Sequence record: NC_047979.1
Length of the DNA stretch: 64,000 nt
Source: Escherichia phage Gostya9
Reading direction: 5' to 3' (one strand)
The notes under the pieces: model-generated
Database searches by the model: none
What the model was told of the DNA's origin: nothing
The model's input: the letters and a program-made list of their open reading frames with translations, nothing else
Position numbers and translations under genes: made by a program
In this document: piece by piece, positions 4,146 through 47,536 of the stretch
How positions within the stretch are numbered: the first letter of the stretch is position 1
Layout: each line of letters starts with the position of its first letter

Positions 4146-5200
4146 GGTATAAACTCCAGTTATTTGATGGATTGTTCCGCATTACCTGCTAGAAAAGGGA
4201 TAACAGGTAATGGGTAACGATCCGTTCGCCGTTAAAATCAATTTAAGGAACTCCACACAGGCCGCTATATCCCGTTAGGGGGCGGGACACCTTATGGCAA
4301 GTGCCGGCCGTCAAATTGTACCAAGTTATTGCTCTTGTTGAATCGGGTACATCTTAAAGCCCATCGGCTAGGGTGTCAAATTATTTTTCGTTTTCTTTTA
4401 AATTAGAATTCTCCCAACTGAATTGCATCTCGCAAAATATTTTCCCATCTTTATGATGGTAAGATATTTCGCTCCCGTGGTTAGCACAAAAAGCGATCAC
4501 TGCCTCAGCTTGTTCCACCGTGATATTGTTAGCCGTTTCTTTGATTTTCATATCGTCGATTCCTTATAAGGTTAATAAGTTTGCCGCCGATAGGCTTTAA
4601 GGTGTACCTGATTTTTAAAGAGCGCGCGGCGGTAAACTCCCCGCCGTGTAGTCCGTTGCCGTCCTACGAGATAAATAATAGGGAATACCCAAAAATGGTG
4701 CAACCTTAATTTTGTAAAGAAATGTAAAGAAAGCAAATACTCGCACCGCGTCCGGTGATCGCCCAAGTTTAAAGGAAACGAGCGCGTGGATACCATAAAA
4801 CCGAGCTGATTGGCAAGTAATTTTTTCATTTTTATTTGCCTTGCCCTACTTGACAAATTCTAAAAAGCTCGTGGTGACGATAAACGGGCTGCCCCTTTAT
4901 GATGGGATACCTGAAAAAATTATCGCGTTAGAAAGCGTTTTTGGCCGCTTATTTTCGATTTAACAAATATTTAACAAAAGCAAAAATGAAAAATAGTTTG
5001 AAAAGGCATTGACTTTTAAAAATCAAGACTAAATGAGTTATTTTATAAAATTAATTAATTGACTTTTATTTGTTGTTGTGTAGTAGAAAGATAGCAGACT
5101 AATAATTACTAGAATGATAATCATGCTGGTGGGTTGTAACAGCCTGAACTATTAGCAGACTACTGATCCCGGAAAATATCATTAGCCAACTAACTATTCC

Positions 5201-6388: not shown

Positions 6389-6733
6389 ATGGTGATTTAT
6401 GAAGGTGATCGCTTTATTGCTGATTGCCGTCCGGCATTGTTAGCAAACTATTTAAATCAGCTTTCGCCAGTATATAAAGGCGTCCTAAATATTTATGAAG
6501 GTGAGGCGCATTATAAGGTCAATGCGGTCGTCGCCCGTGAACTAGCGTTTCAATTTTTGACCTTTGCATCTTGCGGTATTCAGGTCATGGGTGAAGCGTT
6601 AATAGCAGAAAATGAAGATGATTTTATTAATATCTTCCGCAAAATATGCACCGAGCGCCTGATAATGAAAGGGGCGTATATTCAATCAACTGCGGATAGT
6701 ATTGAAACGGCTTTTAGAAAGGGGGCACAATGA
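6389..6733 (+). CDS. hypothetical protein
   Basis: 114-aa ORF preceded by GGGAGG RBS. Confidence 0.45.
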   Translation: MVIYEGDRFIADCRPALLANYLNQLSPVYKGVLNIYEGEAHYKVNAVVARELAFQFLTFASCGIQVMGEALIAENEDDFINIFRKICTERLIMKGAYIQSTADSIETAFRKGAQ

Positions 6734-6859
6734 AGCTATATATTTTCGCGGGTAATGTTGAGGCTGCAAATGATTCCGCTGGTGGCGATAACGTTCGCCA
6801 TTATTGGCAAAATTATATTTACTAGGCGTAATAATCACGGGGCACAACTATCAGGGAGT

Positions 6860-6892
6860 GCCCCTGATTCTCAAATGAGAATGATTCTCATT
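6860..6892. repeat. palindrome AAATGAGAATGATTCTCATTT
   Basis: perfect inverted repeat; related palindromes recur at 7355-7380, 7553-7575 and 7588-7615. Confidence 0.7.
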
Positions 6893-7095
6893 TGACCGCG
6901 CCCGCTATGGTTAGCCTGCTAATGATTAGGGTGTTACGTGTCACCTTGCGTGATCGTTAGCCTGCAAATGATTAGCCTGCAAATGATTTGACCGCGCCCG
7001 CGATGGTTAGCCTGCAAATGATTAGCCTGCAAATGATTAGCCTGCAAATGATTAGGGTGTTATTTGTCGCCTTGTGTGATGGTTAGCGGGCTAAC
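6889..7095. repeat. two copies of a ~75-100-bp direct repeat containing 15-bp subrepeats (GATTAGCCTGCAAAT)
   Basis: TTTGACCGCGCCCGC..GGTTAGCCTGC..AGGGTGTTA unit seen twice with 2-3 tandem 15-mers inside. Confidence 0.8.
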
Positions 7096-7213
7096 TAATT
7101 TTCAAGCCTTCTTCAATTTTGCCCTTGTTTTAGTATCCCCACCAAAATAAAACGCGTTAGAAAGCGATTCAGGGCGTTTTAGGCCTATATTAGAATTATT
7201 CACTGCGTAGGAA

Positions 7214-7233
7214 TACTGTATAAATATACAGTA
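7214..7233. promoter_or_regulatory. LexA (SOS) box-like palindrome
   Basis: TACTGTATAAATATACAGTA, one mismatch to the LexA consensus; exact reverse complement of the 19-bp segment at 5484-5502. Confidence 0.65.
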
Positions 7234-7242
7234 GAATAACCT

Positions 7243-7323
7243 GGGGATAAGTCGGTGGATAACGCTTCAAAATGGCTAGAATTTTGTCAAGGCAAATCGT
7301 GCTGTTGATAAGTCTGTGGATAA
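7243..7323 (-). promoter_or_regulatory. DnaA-box cluster, opposite orientation to the 5395 cluster
   Basis: TGTGGATAA perfect at about 7315; GGTGGATAA and weaker GGGGATAAG / TTGATAAG nearby. Confidence 0.55.
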
Positions 7324-7340
7324 CTTAAATAACAGTGTTT

Positions 7341-7620
7341 CTCACTTCCGTTTTTAAATGCGAATCATTATCATTTGCACTCCACTTCTTGAATAGTTCT
7401 CATTCCACTTCTTGAATAGTTCTCATTCCACTTCTTGAATAGTTCTCATTCCACTTCTTGAATAGTTCTCATTCCACTTCTTGAATAGTTATCATTCCAC
7501 TTTTTAAATGATAATCATTCCACTTCTTAAATGATAATCATTTCACTTTTTAAATGAGAATGATTATCATTCGCATTCCACTTCTTAAATGCGAATCATT
7601 CTCATTCGCATTTAGGCGAG
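7341..7620. repeat. 23-bp tandem repeat array (CCACTTCTTGAATAGTTCTCATT, about 9 units with variants) containing palindromic sub-sites
   Basis: five near-identical units followed by diverged units; embedded palindromes AAATGCGAAT..ATTCGCATTT. Confidence 0.85.
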
Positions 7621-7636
7621 CAGGGCAATTGCCCTG
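7621..7636. repeat. perfect 16-bp palindrome CAGGGCAATTGCCCTG
   Basis: read directly. Confidence 0.7.
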
Positions 7637-7643
7637 CGCTTAT

Positions 7644-8443
7644 GTGCAAATCCGACAATTGCTCCAAGGGTTACGCGTGGGCATGTATGTGCAAATCCGA
7701 CCCATTTTTTGGTAGTGTGCAAATCCGACCCTAAAAATTTATAAATTCGTGAGAGTGACGAATCTGTCTCCCAAAAACTCCAGCAATCACGAACTGCGTT
7801 CGAATCCTGTGGGGTATGTGCAAATCCGACACGGTTTTTCTAGGATTAAGATGTGCGAATCCGATGAAATTTTTGTGACTTCGATGAGAGGGTGTGTGAT
7901 TGTATAGGTTTGAGGAGAAGGTGAGAGAGCGGGAGAAATTTTGGGACTAGAAGGATGTGGGCGCAGGATTGGTGCGGAGCACCTGATTTGCGGGGGTTTT
8001 GGGGGATAGTTGAGGTAATTTGGGGAAATTTGAGATAGGTGCAGAAAAAGTAAAATTTTATTAGCTAAATGGGGCAAAATAGCTTGACGAGTGAAAATTC
8101 TTGTGGCTCTAAAAACTCAGGCAATCACGGGCCTTCGGCCCGAAATAATGCTGCCATTTTCAGGAGATTATATGTTCCTAAAAACTTAGGCGTTTGTGCA
8201 AATCCGACCATAAGTTTCTAGAAACACAATGTACAAAACCGACAGTAATTTCTGGGAATGTGTTTTCAAAAAATGTCTTCTAGAAATAACCGCCCTCCCT
8301 ATAACCGCCCTATATTAACCGCCTATGCTAGAGTTTCTAGGAACAATGAAAACTGCCCTAGAATTTGTGCAAATCCGATGAATATTTCTGTGTGATCTCT
8401 AGAATTTATACTTATCAATTTCCTAGAATATGTGCAAATCCGA
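7644..8443 (+). repeat. dispersed direct repeat family TGTGCAAATCCGA(C/T), at least 8 copies, same orientation
   Basis: copies near 7644, 7688, 7716, 7817, 7853 (variant), 8194, 8365 and 8430; frequently followed by a T-run; one extra copy inside CDS at about 10107. Confidence 0.8.
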
Positions 8444-8495
8444 TGAATATTTTTGTGTGATCTCTAGAATTTATGCTTATCAATTTCCTAGAAAC
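8358..8495. repeat. ~70-bp tandem duplication
   Basis: TGTGCAAATCCGATGAATATTT..TCTCTAGAATTTAT..CAATTTCCTAGAA present twice in tandem with 3 substitutions. Confidence 0.8.
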
Positions 8496-8891
8496 TTAGG
8501 AGTCTGCTAGAAAGTGTTGAGCCATCCTAGCAGATGAGCGGCAACCGGTGTATCATCTTGAACACAGATATTGCCTTTAAATTTTTTATCAGTTATTTTT
8601 AAATATAAGATCCCCCAAGGTTCTCATATAGAGCTTTGCCCCCGCCAGAAGGTCTCGTGATGTTTCTAGTAATCTTTATTAAATTACCTATTGACTTGTC
8701 CTGTCGCTCCGTAACCTACGCTACAAGTCAGTAATTTAAGATTCCTGAACCACCACACCTTCTGTGTGGCAACTCTAAATGGTTAATTCTATTAACTCAT
8801 AGAGTTATGATAACATACATTTAGCTATCTGTCAACGAGAGTTTGTATTATTGTCTCGGTACAGGTATTGTGCACCGAGACTTGCAGAGTA

Positions 8892-9776
8892 TTATAATAA
8901 TTCTTGGTATGCTTTTTGATACGCCTCAGTATCTGTAGGTGTACCTTTTGCTAACGCAATTAGTTCATCCGTTATCTGAATATTCGTATTATAACGTGTG
9001 TGGAACTCGTCAGGGATTTCTAGATATCTATTTATGAACGCTGCAGCAAGCGGTGAAGCTACACCCATTTCTAGAACCCATCCAACATGGTTTTCAAACT
9101 TCAGATAAGGGGAATCAGATGGGGTTGGTGGGGTTACATCAATTTTCTCTGGTTCTTTTTCTGGAAGCAATGGATTACTATATAATGCTTCATCTGGAAG
9201 CACAGATTTACGCTCTTTAAATATATAAGTTTCTAGATCAGATGCCTTAGATCCTGAGTACACAGCAAAAACGCTAGCTTTACCTTGTGATGCCCTAACT
9301 GGTAGATAACTAGTAGGATAGCTTCTTAATGCATCATGGAATGGACTTCCTGAATATTTGTACGTATCTCCATAGAGATCATCAATATTCATTCGTTCAT
9401 CTTCAAAAATGTGAAATGACTTAAATGGTGGAATGGTGAAGTACTCCATCTGTAATCCATAAACTAAGAAACGATGTGCATATGCACTGATTTTTAAGAC
9501 TGTGAATGCTTTTTCACCTTCTTTATGGGCATTGCCCTTTGAAGTAACTGGGTAACGTTTACAAAACATCTCTACTAGACGTTTCTCATTAATATTGAGT
9601 GAGGAATATAAACGTCCATTTAGCCCTATAAGTGCATCGAACATAAATGCTAGTTTATCTTTTTCTTCTTGGGTTAGTCCAGGAAACGGAAGTACTTTAG
9701 CATTAGGAACACTATTATTCTCTTTAGGTTTTGTTTTACCAGCATTTTGTCTTAGTTTATCTTTAAAGTTATACAT
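8892..9776 (-). CDS. hypothetical protein
   Basis: 294-aa ORF; GGGAG RBS upstream; no motif recognised. Confidence 0.55.
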   Translation of the reverse strand: MYNFKDKLRQNAGKTKPKENNSVPNAKVLPFPGLTQEEKDKLAFMFDALIGLNGRLYSSLNINEKRLVEMFCKRYPVTSKGNAHKEGEKAFTVLKISAYAHRFLVYGLQMEYFTIPPFKSFHIFEDERMNIDDLYGDTYKYSGSPFHDALRSYPTSYLPVRASQGKASVFAVYSGSKASDLETYIFKERKSVLPDEALYSNPLLPEKEPEKIDVTPPTPSDSPYLKFENHVGWVLEMGVASPLAAAFINRYLEIPDEFHTRYNTNIQITDELIALAKGTPTDTEAYQKAYQELL

Positions 9777-9793
9777 TATTATCTCCCATTTTT

Positions 9794-9828
9794 AAGGTCT
9801 GGATGACCTTCTTTTTATTTTAGAGCCT
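9794..9828 (+). terminator. rho-independent terminator-like hairpin oriented on plus strand
   Basis: AAGGTC-TGGAT-GACCTT followed by CTTTTTATTTT; a second hairpin GAGCCTC-CGTA-GAGGCTC lies at 9831-9849. Confidence 0.45.
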
Positions 9829-9853
9829 CCGTAGAGGCTCATGTATTAGAGGG

Positions 9854-10450
9854 TTAACTACCTCTCTTATCTTCATTAATAACAGCTCCTAGTGCCCCCA
9901 TAATTGCATCTTCTATACTTCCATGCTTACTAGGATTGCTTAAGTGAATAGTATATGAGTTCCTAGAAACTCCAGAGTCCACAGGCGCTACGCTTTTCAT
10001 ATCAGACTCAAAAGCTTCTTGAGTATGTTTCAATTGTGCAGAAGGTCCATAATCTTCCCCAAACTTATATGACTGTGTACTACTTACCGCACCCCCACAT
10101 GGAACATTGTGCAAATCCGATGGATTATTTAACAGTGCAATGCCACTTCTCGGCCACAGGTCACTAACATGGGTACTAGGACGGTTAACCTCAGTCTTCA
10201 CAAGTTTATAACCAGCATCGATCAGTGCATTAATAAGGTTATCAGCTGGAATGCGAGCCTTGCCGAAAATCTCACGAGCGTTGTTGAGCCTACCTTCAAA
10301 ACCTTTACATGCTCTAATATTAGTGTGTGCAAAGGTTAGCTTCATAGATTTGAATTGTACAGTAGCAGTTAAATCTTTAAAGCTATAATCCCACGTATTC
10401 AGTTCATGATCTGGTACTACTTGAATAGATTGTTGTGCATATAAAGTCAT
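9854..10450 (-). CDS. hypothetical protein
   Basis: 198-aa ORF; contains an internal copy of the TGTGCAAATCCGA motif. Confidence 0.55.
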   Translation of the reverse strand: MTLYAQQSIQVVPDHELNTWDYSFKDLTATVQFKSMKLTFAHTNIRACKGFEGRLNNAREIFGKARIPADNLINALIDAGYKLVKTEVNRPSTHVSDLWPRSGIALLNNPSDLHNVPCGGAVSSTQSYKFGEDYGPSAQLKHTQEAFESDMKSVAPVDSGVSRNSYTIHLSNPSKHGSIEDAIMGALGAVINEDKRGS

Positions 10451-19582: not shown

Positions 19583-20335
19583 TTATCCAACTAGTGGTTC
19601 TAGCTCTAAGTCACAGAAGTTATATACTTCTAGTTTAAGGTTATTGATGCCATTGAATTTATTAACTAATTCGTGAGTAATATATTTTGCAGGAATACCA
19701 CTTTCAGATGGATGATCTGATTTAATAGTGAACTTCTGCTCAGCGGGCACTATATTTACTAGTAAAGAATCCATATCTAAATGGTTCGTTTCTCTGAGTA
19801 ACTCTCCCTCATTGGGGAATCTCACATCTGTTATTACGGCGACATCTGGGTCGTCTTTAGCGATGGATTGCTCCAGAATTATGAGCCAAATGCGTTCATG
19901 TACCAGCTGTCTTCCTAGCTCTGTTCCTACGAGCTGTAACATTTTTCTCGGAGAAATAAATAAACTATAAAGTCCGTCTTCTTTATTCTCTGAGATAAGT
20001 TGTTGAGGATTAAGATATTTTTTCTCAAAAATCGGCCAAACGTACGAGAAGTCTTCAAACTTATTGATACCGTACTTAGACCATACGTCTCTAGCTCGCT
20101 CCAATTGAGATTGTGTGATCGTAAACCATTGGTCAATCTCTTTTCCCCTGCGCTCTCCTAGAATCTCTGGAGTTACACCGAGGATTACGGATGCAAGTTC
20201 ATAAACGGGCTTAGCAAAACTATAACGACGGGGTAAACGCGTTGGATACATATCATTACACCAATCGATAATTAATTTTGCAACAGTGTCTTTTCCAGAA
20301 CCAGCCCCGCCATGTAAACCTACTAATACTGACAT
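19583..20335 (-). CDS. dnk: deoxynucleoside monophosphate kinase
   Basis: 250 aa; P-loop GGAGSGKDT at N-terminus; size matches T5 dNMP kinase as recalled. Confidence 0.7.
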   Translation of the reverse strand: MSVLVGLHGGAGSGKDTVAKLIIDWCNDMYPTRLPRRYSFAKPVYELASVILGVTPEILGERRGKEIDQWFTITQSQLERARDVWSKYGINKFEDFSYVWPIFEKKYLNPQQLISENKEDGLYSLFISPRKMLQLVGTELGRQLVHERIWLIILEQSIAKDDPDVAVITDVRFPNEGELLRETNHLDMDSLLVNIVPAEQKFTIKSDHPSESGIPAKYITHELVNKFNGINNLKLEVYNFCDLELEPLVG

Positions 20336-45709: not shown

Positions 45710-47536
45710 ATGACAGAGAATGAATTAATTGAGAATTGCAAAGGTCTGCTCACTCTAACTGCGGATAAAGACTTACAACATAATAATGCTAATAAGCCTA
45801 GTGAGATGTTCCATACTCAAAGAGACTTATTGGCCGGAGAAATCAACAAGTATTTAGTATCGCAGGAATTACCCAAACATCTATTAGACGCCCATAATCT
45901 AGGTAAGATACACATTCATGATATGGATTACAGAGCGCAGGGGTACACTAACTGTTGCTTAGTAGACCTTGGTGGCATGCTGAAGAATGGTACTAAAATT
46001 GGTAATGCAAATATTGAAACTCCTAAATCCATAACTACTGCATGTGCAATCACTGCCCAGATTATTGCACAAGTATCTGGTGCTCAGTATGGTGGCACCT
46101 CTATTGATCGTATCGACGAGGTTCTAGCCCCGTATGTCAGAAAGTCTTACAATAAACATCTGGGTCGTGGTCTACGTTGGCTCAAGGATGAAAGAAAAGC
46201 TGCCGTGTACGCTACTGAGCTTACTGAAAAAGAGTGTTATGATGCATTCCAAGCTCTAGAGTATGAAACTAATTCATTATTTAACTCTAACGGGCAGACT
46301 CCTTTTGTTACGCTTGGCTTTGGGCTAGGACAGGGGTGGGAGGAAAGGATGATTCAGAAAGCCATCCTCCAAAATCGTATTAAAGGTTTAGGTGCTGCTG
46401 AGTCAACCCCTATCTTCCCTAAACTAGTATTCTCAGTTAAAGAAGGATTAAATAAAAATCCAGGGGATCCTAACTACGATATAAAACAGCTAGCACTTGA
46501 GTGTTCTGCTACTCGTATGTATCCAGACTATTTAAGTTACGAGAAAGTTGTAGCTGTTACTGGTGATTTTAAAGCCCCTATGGGTTGTCGTAGTTTTTTA
46601 TCTGCTATCCCCTCTGGAGAAATTGCAGGGCGTAATAATTTAGGTGTAGTGTCTATCAATCTACCTATGGTTGCTGCTGAGGCAGATGGAGTTTTTGAAG
46701 ATTTCTGGGATATTCTAGACAAATATGTGGATGAGGCTTTTGAAGCGCATGACTTCTTCTTAAACAGACTGAAGAAAGTTAAGGCTAAACAAGCCCCTAT
46801 TCTTTATATGCACGGCGGTTTTGGTGTACGTTTAGATGGGGAAGAATATGTATGGCCTATTTTTGAAGGTAGATCTTCTGTATCTCTTGGGTACATTGGG
46901 GTCTATGAGATGTGTCAAATAATGTTTAGTTTACCACAGACTCATAGGGACTGTATTGAGTTTACAGAGGAAGTTCTCACTCACCTAAAAAATCGTTGCG
47001 AAGTTAAAGCTAACGAGACTAATCTTGGGTTTAGCTTGTATGCAACTCCTAGTGAGTCTCTATGTAATCGCTTTAATAAACTACTGGAACGTAGATTCCC
47101 AGAGTATTCTTGGCTAACAGATAAAGGCTATCTCACTAATAGTCACCATTTGGACGTAAGAGAGAAGGTAGCTCCGGATACTAAATTTGAGTATGAAGCT
47201 CATTTCACCAAAATAGCTAATGGTGGTAATATATCGTTTGTGGAACTACCACAAATGAAAAAGTTCCATAAAGCTCTTGAATACGTAGTAGATAAGGGAT
47301 TAGAATGTAGCCATTATATTGGTGTTAATATACCAATTGATGAGTGCTTCAACTGTGGGTATATGGGTGAATCTGTTGCCTCTGAACGTGGGTTTGTATG
47401 TCCGAGTTGTGGATCTGAAGAAATAGAGGTTACACGTAGGGTTTGTGGGTACCTGGGATCCCCGGGCAGTAGGCCTTTCAATTCTGGGAAACAAAAAGAA
47501 GTGCTTGGTAGAGTAAAACACTTAAATCTTAAGTAA
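45710..47536 (+). CDS. nrdD: anaerobic ribonucleoside-triphosphate reductase (class III)
   Basis: 608 aa; C-terminal zinc ribbon CxxC..CxxC and glycyl-radical motif RVCGY. Confidence 0.85.
   Translation: MTENELIENCKGLLTLTADKDLQHNNANKPSEMFHTQRDLLAGEINKYLVSQELPKHLLDAHNLGKIHIHDMDYRAQGYTNCCLVDLGGMLKNGTKIGNANIETPKSITTACAITAQIIAQVSGAQYGGTSIDRIDEVLAPYVRKSYNKHLGRGLRWLKDERKAAVYATELTEKECYDAFQALEYETNSLFNSNGQTPFVTLGFGLGQGWEERMIQKAILQNRIKGLGAAESTPIFPKLVFSVKEGLNKNPGDPNYDIKQLALECSATRMYPDYLSYEKVVAVTGDFKAPMGCRSFLSAIPSGEIAGRNNLGVVSINLPMVAAEADGVFEDFWDILDKYVDEAFEAHDFFLNRLKKVKAKQAPILYMHGGFGVRLDGEEYVWPIFEGRSSVSLGYIGVYEMCQIMFSLPQTHRDCIEFTEEVLTHLKNRCEVKANETNLGFSLYATPSESLCNRFNKLLERRFPEYSWLTDKGYLTNSHHLDVREKVAPDTKFEYEAHFTKIANGGNISFVELPQMKKFHKALEYVVDKGLECSHYIGVNIPIDECFNCGYMGESVASERGFVCPSCGSEEIEVTRRVCGYLGSPGSRPFNSGKQKEVLGRVKHLNLK

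Follow-up and report, generated by a model that had tools for sequence, protein, structure and literature searches.

Lambda cosB, T3/T7 pacB and P1 pac are non-coding stretches of ∼100–250 bp beside a sequence-specific terminase cut, with repeated short motifs and bend-prone phased A/T tracts. T7 has SRL and SRR, short repeat arrays beside its terminal repeat. Herpesviruses and tailed phages have related terminases, and the herpesvirus pac1 signal lies a few tens of bp from its cut. In pac1, a T-rich element stands between G-rich sequences near the genome end, and cleavage occurs at a fixed distance from it (PMC13595911). Here we describe a G-rich, C-poor island of 171 nt (positions 7880–8050) in a 64,000-nucleotide stretch of Escherichia phage Gostya9 (NC_047979.1), called the window below. 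The island lies beside the right end of the virion DNA and, judged from its sequence and its place, is probably a packaging or transcription-stop signal. Within a known region, it is a sub-element that is real and conserved and had gone unremarked; the literature searched held nothing specific on it as a G-rich, quadruplex, Rho or terminase-binding element in T5.

By its sequence, the window is the left part of the genome of a T5-like phage (Tequintavirus). It begins ∼45 bp inside the left terminal repeat, a region which carries the minus-strand genes dmp, A1 and A2. With megablast, 7600–8300 matched 363 phage records. The best match was Escherichia phage DT57C (96.3% identity), and T5 itself was 88.5% identical. 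The counterpart region in T5 (AY543070) is annotated with "left terminal repeat", "injection stop signal (iss)" at 9140..10149 and "major DNA single-chain interruption". The homologue of the island is at about 9989–10160 of this record and overlaps the end of the iss, which bears out the link to T5 biology implied by the possible injection-pause function in an earlier model-made reading of the DNA letters (the sequence-only reading).

A G-rich, C-poor island next to the right genome terminus

The island has 44 A, 11 C, 72 G and 44 T. Its GC content is 0.485 and its GC skew +0.735, with purines and G+T each at 67.8%; the whole window has a GC content of 0.393 and a skew of −0.01. The island is the top GC-skew peak among all 171-nt segments of the 64 kb. 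Its level of skew is reached by 0.025% of these segments, every one of them overlapping the island, and the next independent peak is only +0.52. Runs of GGG start at 7890, 7931, 7943 and 7959, runs of GGGGG at 7992 and 8001, and a run of GGGG at 8022. The base counts and the skew peak agree with the sequence-only reading, which had described a G+A/G+T-skewed block dense in G runs at this place, and the three strings it quoted (GAGGGTGTGTG, GGGGGTTTTGGGGG and TTTGGGGAAATTTGAG) are all present. Its "AT-rich surroundings" are right in part only: the right flank (8050–8300) has a GC content of 0.39 but the left flank (7600–7880) has 0.45. The island stands out by its near lack of C and not by a high G+C content. 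A weaker excess of G over C goes on to 8109 and ends there. We considered C-to-T deamination of an exposed strand as the cause of the skew and dropped it, because A and T are equal (44 each) and there is no excess of T.

The right genome terminus is placed at 8109|8110 by alignment with other phages. The records of T5, BF23 and HASG4 end at ...CTTGTGG(C/A)TC, which corresponds to 8109, and the same motif closes the record of Klebsiella phage GZ8. For Sepoy, SIY1lw and MM-2, the repeat ends, taken from PhageTerm or from annotation, also map to base 8109. The repeat of BF23 was determined with PhageTerm (PMC10644984). With the cut placed by these seven phages, the island ends 59 bp before it. 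With the terminus at this position, the right-repeat copy of the island spans −230 to −60 from the right physical end, and the left-repeat copy lies just inside the repeat/unique junction. The island directly adjoins a sequence-specific virion DNA end, and the same was found in Vibrio phage VF16. The repeat arrays that had been noted nearby are also there, five copies of the GTGCAAATCCGA repeat to the left of the island and four to the right. All nine array copies are on the plus strand.

To compare the island among relatives, we searched with 7850–8115 in blastn, which matched 507 records. The 35 distinct sequences compared include 32 from Markadamsvirinae and three from Sugarlandvirus, and all 35 have 65–77 G and 8–24 C in the 175 nt before the terminus spacer. 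The sequence-only reading had named non-conservation of the island, together with the lack of a predicted stable quadruplex, as grounds for refuting it, and comparison with related genomes gave the opposite result, a strongly conserved island. In 14 Markadamsvirinae, the mean column identity was 0.92 at 7880–7919, 0.70 at 7920–7960, 0.77 in the central hairpin and 0.84 at 7996–8050. The middle part (7920–7960) is variable in sequence and keeps its C-poorness. In the variable island columns outside the hairpin, C makes up 0–12%, compared with 17–22% in the flanks, which means that composition is conserved beyond sequence. The core of the GGGGG-TTTT-GGGGG element, TTTTGGGG, is almost invariant in the 32 relatives; seven of its eight columns do not vary, and the third G is kept in at least 90%. 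In T5 and most relatives the counterpart of the element is GGGG-ATTTT-GGGG, and relatives keep it at the same distance from the cut.

Erwinia phage KEY, the Klebsiella Sugarlandvirus phages GZ8 and IME260, and VF16 have their parts in the same order (nick-like CTGCGC, repeat array, G-rich C-poor block, TTGACA, cut and repeats). KEY has G53:C5 in the 150 bp just before TGTGGCTC, and GZ8 has G47:C4 per 100 nt. The A1 protein of VF16 is only 32% identical, and its terminus comes from PhageTerm. Its skew covers −210 to −15 from the terminus and is normal right after the cut. In four lineages (T5 group, KEY, GZ8 and VF16), the domain of G over C reaches the cut and stops there. The T5-like phages and VF16 have the same oriented repeat on both sides of the cut. 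Vibrio phi3 has tandem copies of the flanking repeat in place of the island. In Proteus phage 1 there are two blocks that are G-rich and free of C, and one is a 14-bp tandem array. The phi3 repeats and the Proteus array suggest that such blocks are protein-binding iterons. The Proteus array (4157–4306, AATAGAATGGTGGGG-like, G51:C4) is annotated as a small coding sequence and sits beyond a motif, TTGACA...ACGGGGGTGGC, similar to the VF16 terminus.

Two further properties belong to the right part and the centre of the island. The A/T indicator has its peak at a period of 10.0, with P=0.007 in the window against dinucleotide shuffles, P=0.043 in T5 and P=0.000 in two Epseptimavirus sequences. The central hairpin holds most of the C residues of the island and is predicted in 27 of 28 sequence variants. 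When 19 distinct sequences were aligned with a covariance model, pairing in the inner helix reached 98.9%, and at two of the five pairs both bases had changed in a compensatory way (UA to CG and CG to UA). At the outer pair 3:47, 12 sequences have CG, 5 have AU and 2 have UG. Covariation scored 0.198, compared with 0.102 in shuffles; none of 500 shuffles reaches 0.198, and slid controls give at most 0.08. We regard this evidence as moderate, since the alignment was fitted to the structure and independent events are few.

Candidate functions of the island

Tentatively, we read the island as a protein-bound, cosB/pac-like region for end recognition by the terminase. The terminal repeat of the T5 family would then carry a conserved, non-coding end module, with the island as its inner part. 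From left to right, the putative module would consist of the nick site, five oriented GTGCAAATCCGA repeats, the island with its G tracts, A.T tracts and central dyad, an A/T-rich spacer, TTGACA, about 20 nt, the terminase cut at 8109|8110 and four more repeats. Packaging proteins (the small terminase or a partner) would bind the island as double-stranded DNA and probably bend or wrap it. Its oriented units of a W-tract and GGGG, one per helical turn or so, would set the nuclease ∼60 bp to the right and would also mark the side threaded first into the capsid. The position, conservation, composition, phasing and dyad of the island are established by the comparisons above; to these the packaging reading adds that a protein binds, which protein it is and from which end packaging proceeds, all of which we infer. 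Packaging would start from the right end, and the sole basis for this is that the left end is injected first. The reading fits because the island has a fixed place beside the cut in diverged lineages, repeats on both sides, helical phasing and iteron-like equivalents in other genera. The near-invariance of TTTTGGGG and the non-coding nature of the region also speak for it. Several results weigh against it. By itself, a duplex binding site would not account for the avoidance of C on one strand, which holds even in the variable columns and points to a constraint on single strands or on RNA. The position beside the cut could be the inherited synteny of a crowded regulatory region. The ∼10-bp periodicity is not significant in Sugarlandvirus (IME260). 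Repeat ends are annotated away from GTGGCTC|TAAAAA in saus132 (−210), Kenya-K15 (−20) and IME260 (+20), and the T5 repeat is 10,139 bp according to Davison (bioRxiv 10.1101/866236) but 10,219 bp in AY543070. A scan with a position weight matrix found no copy of the GTGCAAATCCGA repeat in the island of this window (best −9 bits, below the 99.9th percentile). In the searchable papers there was nothing on where the T5 terminase binds.

The avoidance of C where the sequence varies, which is an avoidance of G in leftward RNA, fits a compositional signal. About 35 kb of minus-strand early genes to the right of the island, where GC skew indicates minus-strand coding from 9 to 45 kb, would be transcribed leftward toward the terminal repeat. 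Rho would load on the C-rich, G-poor, unstructured RNA of the island and halt transcription before the repeat, and the pre-early genes A2, A1 and dmp on the same strand would be kept off once early transcription begins. We hold such a role, as a Rho-utilisation (rut) site or transcription insulator for leftward early transcripts, to be slightly less likely than the tentative packaging reading, and several properties of the RNA suit it. The best 78-nt window of the leftward RNA (7883–7960) has 35 C and 2 G (45% and 3%; C/G 17.5) and is by far the most extreme C/G window on either strand of the 64 kb. There are 23–25 YC dimers per 78 nt, compared with 2–8 in most RNA upstream of the island and up to 11 just before it. 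Clusters of C recur every ∼10 nt, matching the spacing of Rho on lambda tR1 RNA, where cryo-electron microscopy gives 5 nt per subunit and linkers of 4–5 nt (review PMC12360218). The minus-strand RNA of the island is predicted to form a single hairpin (z −2.55, −11 kcal/mol) and to be otherwise unstructured; as a whole, the island does not fold better than shuffles on the plus strand (z −0.30). The last minus-strand gene to the right ends at 8892. Neither strand of 6700–9000 yielded an intrinsic terminator, hence none was found between this gene and the island, which would be in the predicted untranslated RNA past it. In VF16, the genes right of the terminus are also leftward. However, a rut site gives no reason why the upstream edge of the island is the genome terminus in four diverged lineages, or why TTTTGGGG is nearly invariant. 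The island also exceeds by far, in length and in composition, what known rut sites require, and nothing on Rho during T5 infection turned up in the literature searched. In the core pairs of the hairpin, each of the seven non-Watson-Crick cells is G.U on the plus strand and so would be a C.A mismatch in the leftward RNA; this is weak evidence, because the composition bias confounds it. We rank packaging above the rut site, and the two are compatible rather than exclusive.

The overlap of the T5 homologue with the annotated iss brings in a part in the stop and restart of DNA injection, which we consider unlikely. The left-copy island would lie directly to the right of where first-step transfer stops, and it would bind a host or phage factor (e.g. 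A1/A2) or adopt a structure, keeping the DNA in the tail or envelope until the second transfer step. The 7.9% nick and shear point is about 250–410 bp to the left of the island, conservation of the non-coding region exceeds that of many open reading frames (ORFs) of the repeat (Davison, bioRxiv 10.1101/866236), and phages with A1 homologues keep the same module. On the other hand, the iss was never finely mapped, and the candidate elements of Davison (DnaA-box pairs and IRD'-spacer-IRC') are further left, at about 7230–7330 of the window. The DnaA boxes (TGTGGATAA) are at about 7250–7325, 550 bp left of the island. None of these proposed elements is in the island, the G-rich block is not mentioned in that paper, and the island is beyond the DNA recovered as first-step DNA and tracks the terminus rather than the DnaA boxes. 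The sequence-only reading had raised G-quadruplex or R-loop potential, with a possible replication or injection-pause function. That the G-rich strand forms such a structure, and that it acts in replication priming or pausing, we find very improbable. G4Hunter gives 1.84 at 7983–8026, one of three regions of at least 1.5 (25-nt window) in the 64 kb, and 1.16–2.60 in relatives. Canonical quadruplex motifs occur in three Sugarlandvirus sequences, and herpesvirus pac1 was reported to be able to form a quadruplex (PMC13595911). In the island, G4Hunter alone is positive, and only locally. Neither the island nor any of the 32 Markadamsvirinae has a canonical motif (four runs of at least three G, loops of 1–7, relaxed to 1–12), and the minimum free energy of the island in ViennaRNA is the same with and without quadruplex energies. 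Short local pieces gave only a two-tetrad quadruplex, from splitting the two GGGGG runs, and this is impossible in T5 and most relatives because of their GGGG-ATTTT-GGGG. An R-loop would need rightward transcription that makes G-rich RNA. Nothing found points to such transcription; the upstream plus strand has only weak 9/12 promoter-like matches in repeats at 7466–7570, and T5 has an annotated plus-strand terminator upstream. A replication function found no support, and T5 replication origins are near the genome centre (Davison, bioRxiv 10.1101/866236). Quadruplex calls from G runs alone would mislead here. The sole canonical quadruplex motif of the 64 kb is at 47439, and the highest G4Hunter score in the window (2.08) is at 9106–9136, inside a 294-aa minus-strand ORF.

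The island bears on two questions of T5 biology, the signal in the repeat end that stops and restarts DNA transfer, and the cutting and packaging of exact 8–10 kb repeats. With the region split into parts, the island can be described by its own properties: a place in the last 230 bp of the virion DNA, C avoidance across genera, helical phasing and a single hairpin. These properties yield two candidate mechanisms, terminase recognition and Rho loading.

Features in and around the island

Table 1. Positions of the island, its parts and its neighbours in the 64,000-nucleotide window.
Feature	Position	Strand	Basis or remark
CCTGCGC	7633..7639	−	Homologue of T5 major single-strand interruption (AY543070 9748/9749, minus strand)
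Left array, five GTGC(A/G)AATCCGA repeats (starts 7644, 7689, 7717, 7818, 7853)	7644..7864	+	Repeat scan
G-rich, C-poor island (G72:C11), non-coding	7880..8050	+	Composition, conservation
Central two-stem hairpin/dyad	7962..7992	+	Fold prediction, compensatory changes
Hairpin outer stem (CGCAGG with TTTGCG)	7962–7967 with 7987–7992	+	Fold prediction
Hairpin inner stem (GGTGC, loop GGA, GCACC)	7971–7975 with 7979–7983	+	Fold prediction
∼10-bp alternation of A/T tracts and G clusters (TTTG.GGGG, TTTTGGGGG, GTTGAGG, TTTGGGG, TTTGAGA)	7984..8050	+	Periodicity
GGGGG-TTTT-GGGGG	7992..8005	+	G4Hunter maximum; 104–117 nt from terminus
A/T-rich spacer with one GGGG (8071–8074), nearly invariant	8051..8083	+	Mean column identity 0.96 for 8051–8116
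TTGAC(G/A)...AAAATTCTTGTGGCTC block, ending at the right physical terminus (cut 8109|8110)	8084..8109	+	Record ends, repeat ends
First unique-region element: TAAAAACTCAGGCAATCAC, then hairpin GGGCC-TTC-GGCCC (8129–8141)	8110..8160	+	Second copy of 7772–7806
Right array, four GTGC(A/G)AATCCGA repeats (starts 8196, 8231, 8367, 8432), beyond the terminus	8196..8443	+	Repeat scan

The positions of the features are collected in Table 1. Epseptimavirus and Sugarlandvirus have one copy of the GTGCAAATCCGA repeat within the island. We also considered the island of this window as degenerate copies of the flanking repeat and rejected this, as the matrix scan finds none. Apart from the two arrays, the only other exact copy of the repeat in the 64 kb, the tenth, is at 10109–10120, within a minus-strand gene 1.7 kb from the array. 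The element AAAAACTC.AGCAATCAC with its hairpin has one copy at 7772–7806 and another at 8110–8160, which starts exactly at the cut. In the 7772–7806 copy, the stem varies among relatives (CGAAC/GTTCG, GATGC/GCATC and CGAGC/GCTCG) and the hairpin is kept.

Both genome termini resemble short inverted motifs on the 3′-ending strands. In T5 these are ...CAGTGGACA| on the left and ...CTGTGGCTC| on the right, and in VF16 they are ...GGGGGTACAC| and ...GGGGGTCGC|. The inverted motif may be the cleavage motif of the terminase. We looked for a mirror G-rich block at the left end. Over the last 100 nt, T5, BF23 and VF16 have a modest excess of G (G 25–33 vs C 15–16) and GZ8 has none, so we place no reliance on a mirror block.

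The 96-aa minus-strand ORF at 7787–8077 was rejected as coding, as 1-bp indels break its frame in T5 and others and it has no PHROG match. The 97-codon open run on this strand is no longer than composition predicts (P=0.075 against shuffles); all three minus-strand frames are nearly stop-free because the minus strand lacks G. The small plus-strand ORFs, called hypothetical proteins in some records, also have frame-breaking indels and no PHROG match and were rejected too. In the island there was no match to a covariance model of Rfam 15, and two matches outside it were at chance level (E 0.47 and 0.88). The conserved TTGACA (8084–8089) was considered as part of a promoter and rejected, since T5 has no acceptable −10 element at 16–18 nt, and in VF16 and Proteus phage 1 both the spacing and the downstream sequence differ. 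On the minus strand, a promoter-like site at 8807–8835 (TTGACA-17-TATCAT with TG) is near-consensus. It follows the last early gene and is directed toward the non-coding region and the island. T5 and two other relatives have an identical site, whereas this form of it is missing from DT57C and others.

The CCTGCGC heptamer of the 7.9% nick homologue occurs again on the plus strand at 20147 and 30257, and its inverse GCGCAGG occurs at 7961 (within the island), 36864 and 45935. The copy at 20147 is near the expected place of the T5 18.5% nick. A nick site at 7961 was rejected, as GCGCATG or GCAGCGG stands there in many relatives and a count of three per strand is about what chance gives. To the left of the arrays, 7360–7600 is a dense tandem array of ∼22-bp units (CATTCCACTTCTTGAATAGTTCT and variants). 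This array gives the strongest negative GC-skew peak of the window (−0.56 at 7378–7548). The window has five Chi octamers (GCTGGTGG) on the plus strand (5125, 6094, 6778, 57547 and 58872) and none on the minus strand. Three of the five are no more than 1.7 kb from the terminal repeat, and their orientation is that read by RecBCD coming in from the right genome end. There is no Chi in the island, where the best match has 5–7 of 8 bases.

Comparison with known systems

The island is orthologous to part of the T5 iss/"Repeat Region 3" (Heusterspreute 1987; Wang 2005; Davison 2015, 2020), with which it shares the flanking DRD and DRA repeats and palindromes. The descriptions of the T5 iss in the papers searched give repeats, palindromes and DnaA boxes, whereas the G-rich block and its relation to the terminus are not singled out. 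As in T7 SRL and SRR, short oriented repeat arrays adjoin the boundary of an exact direct terminal repeat; sequence and size differ.

On the opposite strand, rut sites such as lambda tR1 are the closest working analogue. Like them, the predicted minus-strand RNA is C-rich, G-poor, unstructured and longer than 78 nt, with C clusters every ∼10 nt, downstream of the last gene. Compared with typical rut sites, the island is much longer, more extreme and tied to the genome terminus, and its dependence on Rho is a prediction only.

Like herpesvirus pac1, the island has T-rich sequence between G-rich sequences, GGGGG-TTTT-GGGGG with its almost invariant TTTTGGGG, at a fixed 104–117 nt from the cut. 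However, this distance is larger than that in pac1, the left G run is replaced by GCTGCG in Epseptimavirus, and no partner of the pac2 kind was identified. The resemblance is that of a short low-complexity motif and could be due to chance. By analogy, the G-run/T-run/G-run core and its surroundings might form a pac1-type, strand-asymmetric and possibly non-B-DNA packaging signal that the terminase reads at a set distance from the cut, a proposal that we think improbable. If true, it would be the first phage counterpart of herpesvirus pac1 and would explain how T5-like phages set the right boundary of their 8–10 kb exact terminal repeats.

Lambda cosB, T3/T7 pacB and P1 pac are the closest working analogues of the island as a DNA element, and we claim no membership among them. 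There is no homology to these sites and there are no common motifs, and they lack the G72:C11 kind of strand asymmetry. T5 makes exact terminal repeats of 8–10 kb instead of cohesive ends or headful ends, and terminase binding to the island is a prediction. What the island has in common with cosB, pacB and P1 pac is its place beside a cut, on the side which would be packaged first, and perhaps also repeated motifs and phased A/T tracts. With P1 pac it also shares oriented repeats on both sides of the cut.

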